29,879 bases of DNA, from positions 1 to 29,879 of the IMG/VR virus record IMGVR_UViG_2537562092_000001; one strand, 5' to 3'. This document shows positions 15,514-22,048 of this stretch, in pieces. The position numbers and the translations under genes were made by a program. A model generated the notes under the pieces. That model was given only the letters and a program-made list of their open reading frames with translations. It did no database searches and was not told where the DNA came from. Numbering within the stretch: position 1 is the stretch's first letter; the number at the start of each line of letters is the position of its first letter. The DNA is from a virus (Duplodnaviria; Heunggongvirae; Uroviricota; Caudoviricetes).

Positions 15514-15801
15514 ATGACCCCGGCGCAGCGACGCCAGCACTACGACGCCTGGCGCGTCAGCGGCATGTCCCGGACCGCGTATGCCCGGCAACACGGCATC
15601 AACAACAAAACTTTCTGGCATCTCTGCCGCGCCTTCTCCGCTGACGACGCCCGTGGCCCCGCTCCGGCTGATAACAGACCAGCCATCCTGCCGGTCACCC
15701 TCTCCGTCAGTGACACTGCCACCCTGAAACTTCAGTGCGCCTGCGTCACCGCCTCTCCGGCCGGCATCGCCGCCATCATCCGGGAGCTTAACCTGTGCTG
15801 A
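15514..15801 (+). CDS. IS66-family accessory protein TnpA-like (Orf1)
   Basis: 95-aa first ORF of the element, overlapping the start of the next ORF. Assignment is by position. Confidence 0.5.
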   Translation: MTPAQRRQHYDAWRVSGMSRTAYARQHGINNKTFWHLCRAFSADDARGPAPADNRPAILPVTLSVSDTATLKLQCACVTASPAGIAAIIRELNLC

Positions 15802-16133
15802 GCCCTCATTCCCTCTGGCTCGTCCGCGAGCCTGCTGACATACGCGCCGGCATCGACTCCCTGACGCGACTCGCCACTCAGGCCGCCGGGCATCCGCCCC
15901 GGGAAGGCGAAGCCTTCCTCTTCACCGGGAAAAAACGCACCCGCATGAAACTCCTGATGTGGGACCGCCACGGCGTCTGGCTCTGCACCCGCCGCCTGCA
16001 CCAGGGCGCCTTCCGCTGGCCCCGCGACGGCGACACCACCTGGTCGCTCACGGCGGAACAGTTCGCCTGGCTTACCGCCGGCGTTGACTGGCTGCGTCTC
16101 TCTGCCAGCCCCCTGCAGAGGTGGACTGAATAA
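15795..16133 (+). CDS. IS66-family TnpB (Orf2)
   Basis: 112-aa ORF LWLVREPADIRAGIDSLTRLATQAAGHPPREGEAFLFTGKKRTRMKLLMWDRHGVWLCTRRLHQGAFRWP, matching the conserved IS66 Orf2 pattern. GTG start overlaps the tnpA stop. Confidence 0.75.
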   Translation: MLSPHSLWLVREPADIRAGIDSLTRLATQAAGHPPREGEAFLFTGKKRTRMKLLMWDRHGVWLCTRRLHQGAFRWPRDGDTTWSLTAEQFAWLTAGVDWLRLSASPLQRWTE

Positions 16134-16207
16134 CCTCCTGTGCCAGAATCATAATACGGGCAGCTTCTTATCAGGATGTTCCCGCCCGCCTCTGTCATCA
16201 TGGCTGC

Positions 16208-17883
16208 ATGACAGATGACATCCTGAACACCACACAAAACCCCGATGAACTGCGCCGTCTGGCAACAGCGCTGCTGACGGCACAGGCATGCGAATATGAG
16301 CAGCGCCTTCATAACCTGAATACCGTCAACACCACGCTGGAACAGCGCCTCCATAACCTGAATACCGTCACCACCACGCTGGAACAGCGTATCCATGACC
16401 TTAATGCCGCCATGCAGGCAGAAAAAACCGCATATGAACAGCGTATCCGGGAGCTGGAGGAGGCCCTGAAGCTGGCCCACCAGTGGCGCTTCGGGCGTAA
16501 AAGCGAGCGCCTCCCGGCCAGCCAGAAACCACTGGCAGATGAGGACGCGGCCAGCGATGAGGCTGATATCACCCGGCAACTGAGCGACCTGCTGCCGGTG
16601 AAGGAGAAAACCGGGAAGAAGCCGGCCCGTCACCCCCTGCCGGCACACCTGCCGCGACAGGAAACCGTACTCATGCCTGAGACCGGTAGCACCTGTCCGG
16701 ACTGCGGAAGTGAAATGCGACATATCCGCGACGAGGTGAATGAGGTGCTGGAGTATGTACCGGCACACTTCGTGGTGAAACGGACCGTGAGACCGCAGTA
16801 CAGTTGCCCGTGCTGCGACACGGTGCACAGTGCCGTGCTGCCGCCGGCAGTCATCGACAAAGGGCAGCCGGGTCCGGGTCTGCTGGCGCAGGTGGTGACC
16901 GCGAAGGTGCTGGATCACCTGTCACTGCAGCGGCAGCAGAAGATATACGCCCGTGAAGGGGTACAGTTGCCGGAAAGCACGCTGACGGACTGGTTCGGGC
17001 CGACGGCGGCGGTGCTGTCGCCGCTGGCGGCAGCCCTGAAACGTGACCTGCTCAGGCAACCGGTGCTGCAGGCGGACGAGACGCCGCTGCAGATACTGGA
17101 TACGCGGAAAGGGAAAGTCCGGAAAGGGTACCTGTGAGCATACGTGAGTGCGGCGGGCAGTGCCCGGGACATCGTGGTGTACGACTGCCGTCCGGGGCGT
17201 GCGGGGCAGTATGCGTGTGAGATGCTGAGCGGGTGGTCGGGGACTCTGGTGGCTGACGGTTATGCCGGTTACCGGGCGCTGTTCCGTGACGGGCAGGAAG
17301 GGGCCCCTCCGGCGGCACCGGGTATCTGTGAGGCGGGGTGCATGGCGCACGTGCGCAGAAAGTTCATGGAGCTGTACAGAATGAACGGCAGTCCGGGGGC
17401 GAAGGAGGCGCTGAAACAGATACGGGCGCTGTATATCCTGGAGCAGACCATCCGGCAGCGTCCGGCAGAGCAGAAATGGCGATGGCGACGGCGGTACGCG
17501 AAGCCGCAGATGGAGGCGTTCCACAGCTGGCTGAGGGCGACGGAAAAGACGAGCGCGCCGGGTGGCAGGCTGCACGGTGCGGTGACGTATGCCCTGAAGC
17601 GTTGGCCGGCGCTGGAAACATACCTGAATGACGGACGGGTACCGCTGGACAACAACCGGAGTGAGTAGATGATGCGTCCGGTGGCGCAGGGGCGGAAGTC
17701 ATGGCTGTTCGCGGGTTCGCTGCGGGAGGAGAGCGGCTGGCGGAGCTGCTGACGCTGCTGCACACGGCGAGGCTGAACGGTCTGGAGCCAGTAGTCTGGC
17801 TGCGTGATGTGCTGGAGAAGCTGCCGTCATGGCCGGCGTCCCGGCTGGATGAACTGCTGCCTTACCGCCATCCGGCGGACTGA
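16208..17883 (+). pseudogene. IS66-family transposase TnpC, disrupted by two in-frame nonsense codons and a frameshift
   Basis: In-frame TGA at 17135-17137 (...KGYL*AYVS..., where TGG Trp is expected in the conserved GYLW motif), in-frame TAG at 17666-17668 (DNNRSE*MMRP), then a frameshift near 17700-17730 before the conserved C-terminus ...GERLAELLTLLHTARLNGLEPVVWLRDVLEKLP. Zinc-ribbon-like CPDCG...CPCC and the DDE region are recognisable. Confidence 0.8.
16298..16410 (+). repeat. 42-bp tandem repeat (about 2.5 copies) inside tnpC
   Basis: gagcagcgccttcataacctgaataccgtcaacaccacgctg, then gaacagcgcctccataacctgaataccgtcaccaccacgctg, then a partial third copy; encodes EQRLHNLNTV(N/T)TTL repeated. 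Confidence 0.7.
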
Positions 17884-17938
17884 ATACGCCCTGCCATAAC
17901 GCCGGTGATCGCGCCATGCGAGTTCACCGGATGCTTAC

Positions 17939-17946
17939 GTTGAATG
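17939..17946. repeat. Target-site duplication GTTGAATG (right copy) of the IS66-family element
   Basis: See left copy. Confidence 0.8.
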
Positions 17947-18182
17947 TACGTTTTTGGGATTTACTGACGGATATGAATAACCGGCCCATGAAGGAGTACG
18001 GCAAAACCAGCGCAGAACACTTCCGTATGCGCTCATTTGGGGCGGGATTTGCACAGTATTCAGCTTCCAGAATCTGTACACTTTTCCACTCACACAGCTT
18101 CCTCAAAATACAGCCTATTGCTCTACGCTTCTCTCTGTAGAACACCTGTCTTCGGTATTTTGGCGCAAAAACTATGTGATAT

Positions 18183-18925
18183 TTACAGTTCCAAGCGGCT
18201 CGTTGCCATTCGCCAGTCCTTCAACGGAATCGTCCATTTCTGGGACGCAGACTGGATTGCCAGCCACACCACTTTTTTCACCGAGTCGTCTGTCGGGAAC
18301 ACTTTACGCTTTTTGATCGCATGGCGGATCACGCTGTTTAGCGACTCGATGGCATTCGTCGTATAGATCACTTTGCGGATGTCCGTTGGATAAGCGAAGA
18401 ACGTGGCAAGATTCGGCCAGTTAGCCTGCCAGCTTCGGCTGTCAGCGCCGGTGAAACATCTGCGTCATACAGTTCTTTGAACGCAGCAGCTATCTCACGA
18501 GTGGTCATCCCTTTGGCATACAACGAGAGGATCTGGTTATCCATCCCGGTAATACGGGTCTGATTTTTCTTTACCAGTTGTGGTTCGAAGGTACCGTCAC
18601 GATCGCGCGGAGTACGCAGTTCCAGTGGACCGTCGCCTGTGATAACGGTCTTTGTGGAATAACCGTTGCGGGAGTTAGCTCCTAGTCTGGGCTGATTTTT
18701 CTCATACCCAAGATGGTGTGTCATCTCAGCATTGAGAGCGGCTTCAACGCTGAGCTTTTTCAGCAGCCGATCAAACTGACTGAGGTCTTCAGAGGTTTTG
18801 AGGTTTTTGGCCAGTTCGTTAGCCAGAGCCTGTAACTGTTTTTCATCCATAAATTAACCTTCATATGATGCTGGATTGAACATATCAAAATCAGGCGATT
18901 ACACAAATCTATGTACAGGTTCAGC
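18183..18925 (-). pseudogene. IS256-family transposase, internally deleted and frameshifted
   Basis: N-terminal part (18368-18850) ...HHLGYEKNQPRLGANSRNGYSTKTVITGDGPLELRTPRDRDGTFEPQLVKKNQTRITGMDNQILSLYAKGMTTREIAAAFKELYDADVSPAL joins directly, in a different frame, to the C-terminal part (WQANWPNLATFFAYPTDIRKVIYTTNAIESLNSVIRHAIKKRKVFPTDDS...KWTIPLKDWRMATSR). The central DDE core is missing. Confidence 0.65.
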
Positions 18926-18990
18926 CGCTTTATTATCGAGTTCGGTGACCGCCAGGACGGTCACTTCTGAGAAAAGGCATTTACACAGAA
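18926..18990 (+). mobile_element. IS256-family 3' end fragment (last codons plus terminal repeat), opposite orientation to the adjacent copy
   Basis: gccgctttattatcgagttcggtgaccgccaggacggtcacttctgagaaaaggcatttacacagaatcttaaacag encodes the SRFIIEFGDRQDGHF* terminus and is homologous to 7166-7240. It begins at the same codon where the minus-strand copy ends. Confidence 0.45.
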
Positions 18991-19645
18991 TCTTAAACAG
19001 GTTCACGCAGCACTGGCGTCAGGGCATTGATTGTCGCTTTCACTGATTTGCTCCGGTTTCCCGTGGTCAGACTGCGCACTTTCTCCTTCAGCCTGTTCAC
19101 ACTCGTCAGGGCTATTTTCAGCTTCAACTGTTTGTGCCATGTCATACTGTACCCGAGGAACTTCTGCTCCCACGGGCGCGCCACCGCGCTCTTCTTCTCA
19201 TTCACTTTCTGCTTCAGTTTGTTCTCTACGACGTCCTGATACCATGCAGCAATGGCCGCCCTGCGGCATGCCTTCCTGCCATTTCTCTCTTTGCCCGTCC
19301 CGGACTATTTCCTCTTTCAAGTAGCGGCGTATCAGCCTCAGCACCCGCCTGTCCTTTATCGTACTGGCCAGACGCGTCATCAGGAGTCTGTGATCCACAC
19401 GGTCGAAGAACTTCTCCAGATTTATATCCACCACCCACCGTTTGCTGCCCCGTATATAATGCTGTGCCTATTGCACTGCCTGCCATACGTTGCGTCCCAG
19501 CCGGAAACCGTGCCTAGAGTCTGAGAAGCTTTTGTCCACGATGGCGCTTAAATGTTGCGCTATAGCTATAGCCTGCTGGATAGGCCTATCCACCACTGTC
19601 GGGATGCCTAAGGTTCTCACGCCGCCATCATGCAGCTCTGACGGA
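18991..19645 (-). pseudogene. Group II intron-encoded reverse transcriptase/maturase fragment
   Basis: Pieces in two reading frames: ...HDGGVRTLGIPTVVDRPIQQAIAIAQHLSAIVDKSFSDSRHGFRLGRN (RT domains 1-2), ...DINLEKFFDRVDHRLLMTRLASTIKDRRVLRLIRRYLKEEIV...EGMPQGG (RT domains 3-4), ...RPWEQKFLGYSMTWHKQLKLKIALTSVNRLKEKVRSLT (thumb/X region). Both ends are cut by IS sequences. Confidence 0.7.
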
Positions 19646-19868
19646 TGAGGTAGCCTGAGTTTAACGGACACTCCTTCCTGAAATAGAATGGCATCAGAAG
19701 GAGCTAATAATGAGCAGAAAAACCCAACGTTACTCTAAAGAGTTCAAAGCGGAAGCTGTCAGAACGGTTCTTGAAAATCAACTTTCGATCAGTGAAGGCG
19801 CTTCCCGATTATCTCTTCCTGAAGGCACTTTAGGACAATGGGTTACCGCCGCCAGAAAAGGGCTCGGT
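19646..19868 (+). mobile_element. IS3-family (IS600-like) left end plus 5' orfA fragment
   Basis: Terminus TGAGGTAGCCTGAGTTTAACGGACAC at 19646, then orfA start at 19710 (MSRKTQRYSKEFKAEAVRTVLENQLSISEGASRLSLPEGTLGQWVTAARKGLG). IS-type sequence ends at about 19868, where the frame continues into unrelated coding sequence. Confidence 0.6.
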
Positions 19869-20072
19869 AAGAGTCAGCAATTACGCCAGCGTGTAGCCGC
19901 TGAGACAGATCCAATTCGCGCAGCATTCCTCTTGGGGCAGATTAGCAAACAGGTAAGCCTTGCTCCAAAACCAAAGAAAGCCATCAAGCCAGAGCCGGAA
20001 GTACGTGGTGGCGGTGCTGATGCGAAACAAGACGAATTCAACAAATTATGCCCCGGCGCAAAAATCGAATAA
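19869..20072 (+). pseudogene. 3' fragment of the phage gene upstream of coat (possibly scaffolding protein), fused to the IS fragment
   Basis: Only one open frame exists here (...ISKQVSLAPKPKKAIKPEPEVRGGGADAKQDEFNKL...), ending 11 bp before the coat start. Scaffold identity is inferred only from P22-like gene order. Confidence 0.3.
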
Positions 20073-20083
20073 GGAAAAGATAA

Positions 20084-21355
20084 ATGCCTAACAATCTCGA
20101 CAGTAACGTCAGTCAAATCGTTCTGAAAAAATTCCTTCCGGGTTTTATGTCAGATTTAGTTCTGGCGAAAACCGTAGACCGTCAGTTGCTGGCAGGTGAA
20201 ATCAACTCCAGCACTGGCGATAGCGTTAGCTTTAAACGTCCGCATCAATTCTCATCCCTCCGTACTCCCACTGGTGATATTTCAGGGCAAAATAAAAACA
20301 ACCTGATCTCAGGTAAAGCTACGGGGCGTGTAGGTAACTACATCACTGTTGCTGTTGAATATCAGCAACTGGAGGAAGCGATCAAGCTTAACCAGCTGGA
20401 AGAAATTCTCGCGCCGGTTCGCCAGCGAATCGTTACCGACCTTGAAACAGAGCTTGCTCACTTCATGATGAATAACGGTGCGTTGTCACTTGGTAGCCCC
20501 AATACTCCAATCACCAAATGGTCTGATGTTGCGCAGACGGCATCTTTCCTGAAAGACCTCGGCGTTAATGAAGGTGAAAACTATGCTGTAATGGATCCAT
20601 GGTCTGCACAGCGACTTGCTGATGCGCAGACTGGTTTGCACGCTTCAGATCAATTGGTTCGTACTGCATGGGAGAATGCACAGATCCCAACCAATTTTGG
20701 CGGCATTCGCGCACTGATGTCTAATGGGCTTGCCTCTCGTACGCAGGGGGCATTTGGCGGAACACTGACAGTCAAAACACAGCCAAATGTTACCTATAAC
20801 GCAGTTAAAGACTCATACCAGTTCACTGTAACATTGACCGGAGCGACAGCCAGCGTTACAGGTTTTCTGAAAGCTGGTGATCAGGTTAAATTCACCAATA
20901 CCTACTGGCTGCAACAGCAGACCAAACAGGCGTTGTATAACGGAGCCACACCAATTAGCTTCACTGCAACGGTTACTGCTGATGCTGATTCAGACGGCAG
21001 TGGCGATGTGACGGTTACGCTTTCTGGTGTTCCGATTTATGACACTACAAACCCGCAGTACAACTCTGTAAGTCGTCAGGTAGCGGCAGGCGATGCCGTA
21101 TCTGTAGTAGGCACTGCTAGCCAGACAATGAAGCCAAACCTGTTCTATAACAAGTTCTTCTGTGGACTTGGCTCTATCCCACTGCCGAAACTGCACAGTA
21201 TTGATTCTGCTGTTGCAACATATGAAGGTTTCTCCATCCGCGTACATAAATACGCAGATGGCGATGCCAACGTGCAAAAAATGCGCTTCGACTTACTGCC
21301 TGCATATGTGTGCTTTAACCCTCACATGGGCGGTCAGTTCTTCGGTAATCCGTAA
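20084..21355 (+). CDS. Major capsid (coat) protein, P22/Sf6-like
   Basis: 423-aa ORF directly upstream of gp4- and gp10-like genes. The size matches the Sf6-type coat. It does not match the P22 gp5 sequence as I recall it, so the call rests on synteny and size. Confidence 0.65.
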   Translation: MPNNLDSNVSQIVLKKFLPGFMSDLVLAKTVDRQLLAGEINSSTGDSVSFKRPHQFSSLRTPTGDISGQNKNNLISGKATGRVGNYITVAVEYQQLEEAIKLNQLEEILAPVRQRIVTDLETELAHFMMNNGALSLGSPNTPITKWSDVAQTASFLKDLGVNEGENYAVMDPWSAQRLADAQTGLHASDQLVRTAWENAQIPTNFGGIRALMSNGLASRTQGAFGGTLTVKTQPNVTYNAVKDSYQFTVTLTGATASVTGFLKAGDQVKFTNTYWLQQQTKQALYNGATPISFTATVTADADSDGSGDVTVTLSGVPIYDTTNPQYNSVSRQVAAGDAVSVVGTASQTMKPNLFYNKFFCGLGSIPLPKLHSIDSAVATYEGFSIRVHKYADGDANVQKMRFDLLPAYVCFNPHMGGQFFGNP

Positions 21356-21397
21356 TAACAAGGGGCTTACGCCCCTTTTATGTTTTAAGGAAACAAT

Positions 21398-21583
21398 ATG
21401 GATCGCATGAGTGTATTCCTTGCCGCAGATAACGAATCCGGGCATGTACAGGCCGTTATCGCAGAAAAAGACTTCCAGTTTTTCGAAAAGTTGGGCTTTG
21501 TTGCCTCAGTTGATGAATTGAAACCGACCAGTAAGCGAGCTCGTAAGGCGGCAGACAATGGCAACAGTACTGACAAAGGGTGA
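21398..21583 (+). CDS. Small hypothetical phage protein between coat and gp4-like genes
   Basis: 61-aa ORF with a plausible RBS (aaggaaacaatATG); overlaps the gp4-like start by 26 nt. Coding status uncertain. Confidence 0.35.
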   Translation: MDRMSVFLAADNESGHVQAVIAEKDFQFFEKLGFVASVDELKPTSKRARKAADNGNSTDKG

Positions 21584-22040
21584 GATCGTCCTTTTTGCGC
21601 TTCGTAAGTTTGCTATTGCTTCTAATGCATCGCTGACTGATGTTGAGCCGCAATCAATTGAAGATGGTGTAAATGATCTGGAAGATATGATGTCCGAGTG
21701 GATGATTAACCCCGGCGACATTGGTTACGCTTTCGCAACTGGAGATGAGCAGCCATTACCAGATGATGAGTCAGGTCTTCCAAGAAAATACAAACACGCA
21801 GTAGGCTATCAGTTATTGCTGAGAATGCTATCTGATTACAGCCTTGAACCAACTCCGCAAGTTCTCAGTAACGCCCAACGCTCATATGATGCCTTGATGA
21901 CCGACACTCTGGTTGTTCCTTCAATGCGACGACGTGGAGATTTTCCTGTAGGGCAGGGTAATAAATATGACGTGTTCACATCTGACCGATATTATCCAGG
22001 CGATCTCCCTCTGATTGATGGCGATATCCCAAACGCATAG
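21558..22040 (+). CDS. Head-completion/tail-adaptor protein, P22 gp4-like
   Basis: 160-aa ORF ...[42 protein letters not shown], matching the recalled P22 gp4 N-terminus (..[20 protein letters not shown]..). Confidence 0.8.
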   Translation: [160 protein letters not shown]

Positions 22041-22048
22041 GTGAATAA

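Follow-up and report, generated by a model that had tools for sequence, protein, structure and literature searches.

The window, by which the whole stretch of 29,879 nucleotides analysed here is meant, contains a decayed and rearranged variant of IS1414, an insertion sequence of E. coli; the greater part of the element is turned relative to its own 3' tail. Judged from the arrangement of its parts, the scar may well go back to a single intramolecular transposition within an IS1414 copy, which was catalysed by the transposase and led to an inversion-deletion with a staggered target of 8 bp, a reading to which about an even chance is given. The second end that would have taken part in this event is proposed more tentatively. 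It lies at X, the right edge of an IS200C fragment (window position 18192), which is the far joint of the rearrangement and an internal point of tnpA. Here, the IS256-family transposase possibly used a 13-nt terminus-like IS200C sequence as a surrogate right end, about 0.5 kb from its own IRL, and the pair was integrated into the body of the element itself; for this part, the chance is put somewhat below even.

As a reference, the intact IS1414 of 1315 bp from E. coli WP5-S17-ESBL-10 was used (L002, positions 1503-2817), which is annotated as IS1414 in RefSeq and is inserted in a fimbrial gene with a direct repeat of 8 bp, TTTTGCCT. A BLAST comparison of this intact element with the window gave four matches, which are listed in Table 1 together with the other features of the locus. 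IS1414 is the closest named relative of the element, and Transposase_mut (PF00872, Mutator-type DDE) was identified by Pfam in both ORF fragments, with E=1.8e-28 for the nt 1-481 piece (profile positions 13-136) and E=1.2e-8 for the nt 994-1241 piece (profile positions 332-377). In RefSeq, the pieces of the locus are labelled only as 'transposase' pseudogenes and 'hypothetical protein'. The two terminal inverted repeats, IRL (GAACCTGTACATAGATTTGTGTAATCGCC) and IRR (GAACCTGTTTAAGATTCTGTGTAAATGCC), are identical at 21/30 positions, and because of the rearrangement they are now present at the locus as direct rather than inverted copies.

The locus element agrees with IS1414 in nucleotide identity (97.7% and 95.6%), in the possession of both terminal inverted repeats and of Transposase_mut fragments, and in the 8-bp target size. 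However, nt 1-1241 are inverted relative to nt 1234-1315, the whole element is without a flanking direct repeat, and the tail, being 92.7% identical, represents a diverged 3' variant; both termini read GAACC and not GAGCC. The tail (nt 1234-1315) has kept its original orientation with its original flank still attached, and reads in frame through SRFIIEFGDRQDGHF to the stop codon. The minus-strand frame reads DWRMATSR and then LEL with a stop codon, running into foreign sequence.

An earlier note, made from the sequence alone, had described an IS256-family transposase gene that is split into two opposite-strand pieces at the same codons, with a minus-strand copy that diverges after MATSR and a plus-strand piece that carries the terminal codons. 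This description was borne out by the Pfam match, by BLAST with the shared nt 1234-1241, and by the two reading frames. The extents given for the pieces had to be replaced: for the minus-strand piece (18183-18925), the IS1414 homology covers 18193-18922, position 18183 being only the stop of a run-on ORF, and the plus-strand piece (18926-18990) actually covers 18923-19004, with the IRR ending at 19004.

Table 1. Features of the rearranged IS1414 locus and its flanks, with window positions, and target duplications of the intact IS1414 copies used for comparison.
Feature	Position in window	Strand	Identity or remark
Separate IS1414-like 3' remnant, nt 1074-1315	7004-7244	+	88.4% over 242 bp (BLAST)
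IS200C tnpA fragment, about codons 16-64	18046-18192	-	96.6% over 147 bp; Pfam Y1_Tnp, E=1.1e-9
Terminus-like 13-mer at X, candidate cryptic end	18180-18192	-	GGAACTGTAAATA compared to IRL GAACCTGTACATA, 10/13
AGCCGCTT, first copy, at the IS200C joint	18193-18200	- (reverse complement)	
IS1414 nt 994-1241, transposase codons 308-390, inverted relative to the tail	18440-18193	-	95.6% over 248 bp (BLAST)
Single odd base at the internal deletion joint	18441	-	
IS1414 nt 1-481	18922-18442	-	97.7% over 481 bp (BLAST)
Start codon, codons 1-136, in the nt 1-481 piece	start codon at 18850	-	translation
IRL, in the nt 1-481 piece	about 18894-18922	-	terminal base 18922
AGCCGCTT, second copy	18923-18930	+	next to the terminal base of IRL, the place expected for a target duplication
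IS1414 nt 1234-1315, tail	18923-19004	+	92.7% over 82 bp (BLAST)
Last 15 codons and stop, in the tail piece	18923-18970	+	stop at 18968-18970
IRR, in the tail piece	about 18976-19004	+	
Group II intron reverse transcriptase/maturase (ltrA) fragment	19005-19629	-	89% to intact ltrA genes; weak Pfam GIIM, RVT_1
Intact IS1414 in a fimbrial gene (L002)			8-bp duplication TTTTGCCT
Intact IS1414 in sitD			8-bp duplication CAGCCATC
Third intact IS1414 insertion			8-bp duplication TTTATGTC

Within the inverted part of the element, IS1414 nt 482-993 (codons 137-307, 512 bp) are absent. Since these nucleotides are missing and one odd base (18441) is present, the two halves are out of frame. An internal out-of-frame deletion had been recognised before; the sizes of the retained transposase parts, then given as about 130 and 90 amino acids, are corrected to about 136 amino acids for the N-terminal and 82 amino acids for the C-terminal part. 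The 512-bp deletion takes out the catalytic core of the transposase, and because the catalytic codons 137-307 are deleted, the transposase gene is non-functional. The gene for the EAST1 enterotoxin, astA, is embedded in IS1414 (PMC12585946); in the intact element it occupies nt 788-904 and is read in a frame of the transposase gene other than that of the transposase. As the deletion (window 18442-18440 joint) removes the whole astA ORF, the copy in this island is astA-negative. The decay of IS1414 through deletions has already been reported as common (PMC12585946), and the 512-bp internal deletion is an event separate from the inversion. Since the catalytic core was lost in this deletion, the transposase acted either before the deletion or came from another copy, in trans. 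There is no sign of present function at the locus, which is a non-functional scar.

The evidence for a transposase-made rearrangement comes from the two new joints. The minus-strand and the plus-strand piece both contain exactly IS1414 nt 1234-1241, which is the 8-bp sequence AGCCGCTT. The terminal base of the IRL is 18922 and the target starts at 18923, placing one new joint exactly at the IS end; since the tail starts beside the terminal base of the IRL, 18922/18923 is a true joint of IS end and target. The second new joint bears IS200C sequence and not the other end of IS1414; here, X is located next to the reverse-complemented 8-mer, in the order TTTACAGTTCC/AAGCGGCT. The two new joints thus share an inverted duplication of IS1414-typical length, 8 bp, in which base 18193 is ambiguous. 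This base (T, minus strand) can be attributed to IS1414 or to IS200C, an ambiguity of 1 nt, and the duplication is therefore 8 bp, possibly 7 bp. The terminal C of the IRR (19004) is likewise common to ltrA. The chance that two independent breakpoints in an element of 1315 bp overlap by exactly 8 bp is about 1/1315. The microhomology is at most 1 nt at each joint, which argues against slippage or template switching, and an origin by slippage or microhomology was rejected for this reason. An exact IS terminus together with an inverted duplication of the size of the family fits a staggered transposase cut in inversion polarity.

The earlier note had interpreted the locus as an inversion, one breakpoint of which lies in the transposase gene. 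The turning of most of the element relative to its own 3' tail is retained from this interpretation, while the plain inversion is not. A plain inversion made without a transposase would explain pieces that are oppositely oriented and broken at the same codons, but it is very improbable and does not fit the joints, because the 8-mer is duplicated and not partitioned, whereas a reciprocal inversion duplicates nothing, because one breakpoint is the exact terminal nucleotide of the IRL (18922), which is the mark of a transposase-made joint, and because the far-side flank of about 549 bp that a reciprocal inversion would keep is missing. In addition, no inverted repeats are present at these points to drive a homologous inversion.

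Members of the IS256 family generate 8-bp duplications (PMC7780238), and a target duplication of 8 bp was identified at three independent intact IS1414 insertions (Table 1). For this comparison, L010 and L011 were measured in place of the intact copy L003, which is flanked by other IS fragments and for this reason showed no target duplication. At the locus copy, ACGCAGCA is found outside the IRR without a matching copy outside the IRL, and the IRL abuts the internal AGCCGCTT; a missing flanking 8-bp direct duplication is expected after the rearrangement. Transposition in the IS256 family follows a copy-out/paste-in route with 3'-OH nicks at an IR-spacer-IR junction, and the junction spacers that are best for transposases of this family have a length of 6-8 bp (PMC7780238).

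The flanks of the element point to its original site. The joint of IS1414 and ltrA maps to positions 2500/2501 of L007, the plasmid pLR-06-2. IS1414 was originally inserted in ltrA, and the target duplication expected there is ACGCAGCA. The fragment on the other side was compared with an intact IS200C sequence. On plasmid pLR-06-2 (L007 1507-4010), IS200 directly adjoins the 3' end of the intron in the same order and orientation as at the locus, with the left-end hairpin of IS200 beside the intron terminus. The adjacency of IS200 and the intron was identified in 116 complete E. coli genomes, using a 720-bp probe covered to at least 80%; other copies of the intron occur without IS200. In the arrangement on pLR-06-2, the distance from X to the IS1414 insertion site is 549 bp (L007 1951-2499), and this segment consists of the 5' end of IS200, the 3' end of the intron and the C-terminus of ltrA. 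The 549-bp segment is absent from the window and, in strain FDAARGOS_536, from 41 kb surrounding the locus, and no reciprocal product of the rearrangement was found within the same range.

The simplest ancestor would consist of IS200 (minus strand), about 549 bp, IS1414 (plus strand) inserted in ltrA, and then the remaining ltrA, with a spacing that was presumably of the L007 type. The present state would correspond to this ancestor with nt 1-1241 inverted, 549 bp lost and AGCCGCTT duplicated. The ancestral joint, ltrA-ACGCAGCA followed by the IRL, was composed from the ltrA of L007 and the IRL of the window and was searched for. No complete E. coli genome covered more than 52% of this ltrA-IRL probe, and no exact match was obtained in species-representative genomes or metagenome contigs. 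Since no genome with the ancestral joint was found, the ancestor is reconstructed and not observed.

Both flanking fragments have a history of their own. The ltrA fragment is a mosaic in comparison to the intact intron, with 98.6% identity over the first 70 bp and about 89% overall; it carries an internal deletion of about 125 bp and is annotated in RefSeq as two 'hypothetical proteins'. The IS200C fragment is also cut on its other side, where it is joined to a stretch (17938-18045) with about 81% similarity to istA of the IS21 family. This istA-like stretch is preceded by an element of the IS66 family whose tnpC is a pseudogene (about 15514-17883). Within 4 kb, no fewer than five IS families are nested.

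In the proposed one-step mechanism, the IS1414 transposase would nick the DNA to give a 3'-OH at the IRL (bottom strand) and a 3'-OH at X inside IS200C (top strand). A cut with an 8-bp stagger at AGCCGCTT (nt 1234-1241) of the same element would offer two 5' ends, to which both 3'-OH ends would then be joined in inversion polarity. The ancestor can be written as p-X-g-[L e1 T e2 R]-c, with L for the IRL, R for the IRR, T for the 8-bp target, g for the 549 bp, e1 for nt 1-1233 and e2 for nt 1242-1315. One continuous strand would result, p-X-rc(T)-rc(e1)-rc(L)-T-e2-R-c, whose replication would fix the product with loss of g, the segment that separated X from the IRL. The product would be composed of X, the reverse complement of AGCCGCTT with the reverse complement of nt 1-1233 including the IRL, a second AGCCGCTT with nt 1242-1315 including the IRR, and ltrA. 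The order of the pieces in the window is the order predicted for this product, and the far joint falls on the opposite strand at a distance of 8 bp, the position expected from a staggered cut of the target. We infer both the order of events and the role of X as the second attacking end.

X is oriented like a right end facing the IRL, and therefore X and the IRL resemble an IRR-spacer-IRL junction. The 10/13 match of X to the IRL terminus is in register with the joint; about 0.03% of the window positions are as good for either end (empirical p = 2e-4), and 0.12% of the positions after correction for the choice of length and inverted repeat (p = 1.2e-3). The terminus-likeness of X is suggestive of the use of a pseudo-end, though not conclusive. 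Two features of X speak against an end: the terminus similarity stops after 13 nt, with 10/20 matches at 20 nt, and the subterminal TGTGTAA/TGTAAA motif is out of register. The one-step model as a whole is weakened by the spacer of 549 bp deduced from the plasmid arrangement, which is far from the optimal 6-8 bp, and by the ambiguous base 18193, because of which the duplication may comprise only 7 bp.

The exact IRL joint and the 8-bp inverted duplication would be explained equally well by two or more steps with genuine ends, an alternative that is considered rather unlikely. In this case, a real IRR-spacer-IRL junction, provided by a tandem IS1414 dimer or by a minicircle beside the IRL, would have attacked AGCCGCTT. 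A hit on the right-hand copy in inversion polarity would have resulted in an intact IS1414 abutting the inverted fragment (IRR joined to AAGCGGCT), and a later deletion would have removed the intact copy and about 0.55 kb of the left flank, ending exactly at the IRR terminus. Excision or deletion from a transposase-cut IS end could make such a deletion. However, genuine ends come at the price of an extra deletion that removes a whole IS with an endpoint exactly at the IS terminus, and the 10/13 terminus-likeness of X is left as a coincidence (p about 1e-3). The joint of IRR and AAGCGGCT that this route would have formed is absent from 5426 complete E. coli genomes and from a metagenome scan.

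It is improbable that the scar goes back to a nested insertion followed by an unrelated deletion. Here, a second IS1414 would have entered the resident copy in inverted orientation at AGCCGCTT with an ordinary 8-bp duplication, and a later deletion would have taken the left flank together with 1241 bp from the start of the resident copy and 74 bp from the end of the incoming one. In E. coli, long inverted repeats that are separated by a short spacer are not stably maintained, and the deletion could have been driven by the resolution of the resulting palindrome of 1.24 kb, the spacer of which is 74 bp. The joint of IRL and AGCCGCTT is accounted for in this way, and IS1414 copies commonly decay by deletion (PMC12585946). 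However, the deletion must end exactly between nt 1241 and nt 1242 of the incoming copy, for which the odds are about 1/1315, and the endpoint microhomology of only 1 nt is a poor fit to slippage. The nested intermediate itself was not found in the 5426 complete E. coli genomes and the metagenome scan.

The joint expected for a nested or a dimer intermediate, IRR followed by AAGCGGCT, was searched for directly. No true match was present in the 5426 complete E. coli genomes, and the metagenome scan was empty. Two records with a '100%' match, ETEC H10407 and its duplicate, were rejected, and contain two convergent IS1414 copies about 300 bp apart. No intermediate of any of the models was observed, the ancestral joint included.

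The arrangement in the window is shared by a large number of genomes. In 142 complete E. coli genomes, from humans, chickens, pigs, a giant panda and water, the 951-bp block (18100-19050) occurs with 100% identity. The joint of IRL and AGCCGCTT was identified in 146 of 5426 finished E. coli genomes and in none of the species-representative genomes, and the left flank of the locus was found in 147 genomes. The crowding of repeats in this region had raised the concern of an assembly artefact across repeated IS sequence. Since the block is identical in 142 independently finished genomes, with the diagnostic joint in 146, this concern is removed and the probability of an artefact is negligible.

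Intramolecular transposition that results in an inversion-deletion is a known kind of rearrangement. Intramolecular inversions and deletions driven by IR-IR junctions have been described also for IS911 and IS21. For IS30, another copy-out/paste-in element, IR-IR junctions were shown to give intramolecular deletions and inversions, with some of the targets inside IS copies (PMC9333248). As in the proposed one-step event, the attack on a target of the same molecule comes from outward-facing ends that abut each other, the deletions or inversions start exactly at the IR, and the junction is destroyed. In contrast to IS30, one partner at the locus would be IS200C sequence with a 10/13 terminus similarity and not a real IR, the spacer would be about 549 bp and not a few bp, and the family is IS256. 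In the inside-out transposition of composite transposons, known from Tn10/IS10, 'deletion/inversion' products are formed. Here also, two ends face each other across a segment that is lost, the target is in the same replicon, and the inversion of a segment is accompanied by a target duplication in inverted orientation. However, Tn10 transposes by cut-and-paste with two genuine IS10 ends, while at the locus one end would have been a surrogate, and nicking and strand transfer were presumably followed by resolution through replication.

In the literature examined, no description of such an inversion-deletion was found for IS1414 or for the IS256 family, and the one aspect that is mildly new is that a surrogate end was possibly used. 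The practical importance of a scar in an IS-rich E. coli island is small. The locus can serve as a worked example for distinguishing a transposase-made from a generic inversion, by the exact IS terminus, the inverted duplication of family length and the loss of the DNA between the ends. It may in addition document that a transposase of the IS256 family has used a pseudo-end in nature; if true, it would be a natural record of copy-out/paste-in transposases running 'junction' reactions with a long spacer and a pseudo-end, which invert and kill their own IS. The joints 18192/18193 and 18922/18923 provide a stable, sequence-unique marker for tracing the island.

The separate IS1414-like 3' remnant at 7004-7244 was rejected as a partner of the rearrangement, being only about 88% identical and having nt 1234-1241 uninterrupted. 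Because nt 1234-1241 are present there in continuity, this remnant is not the reciprocal product. Several 3'-end substitutions are common to 7004-7244 and 18193-18260, which suggests a distinct IS1414 subtype. The remnant, which includes an IRR, adjoins a fragment annotated as alkaline phosphatase, just downstream of a gene for an autotransporter of 1165 amino acids (7385-10882, minus strand).

On the other side of the locus, a sharp change of context was observed at about 19869, inside an IS3-family element. In most genomes, the rest of the IS3 element follows past this point, and then genes for an alcohol dehydrogenase and an MFS transporter. In the window and in only about three genomes, a block of P22-like phage late genes is found instead (19860-29600), coding for capsid, gp4, gp10, tail needle, ejection proteins, Arc and a truncated tailspike. 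This P22-like block starts with an N-terminally truncated capsid-related gene.
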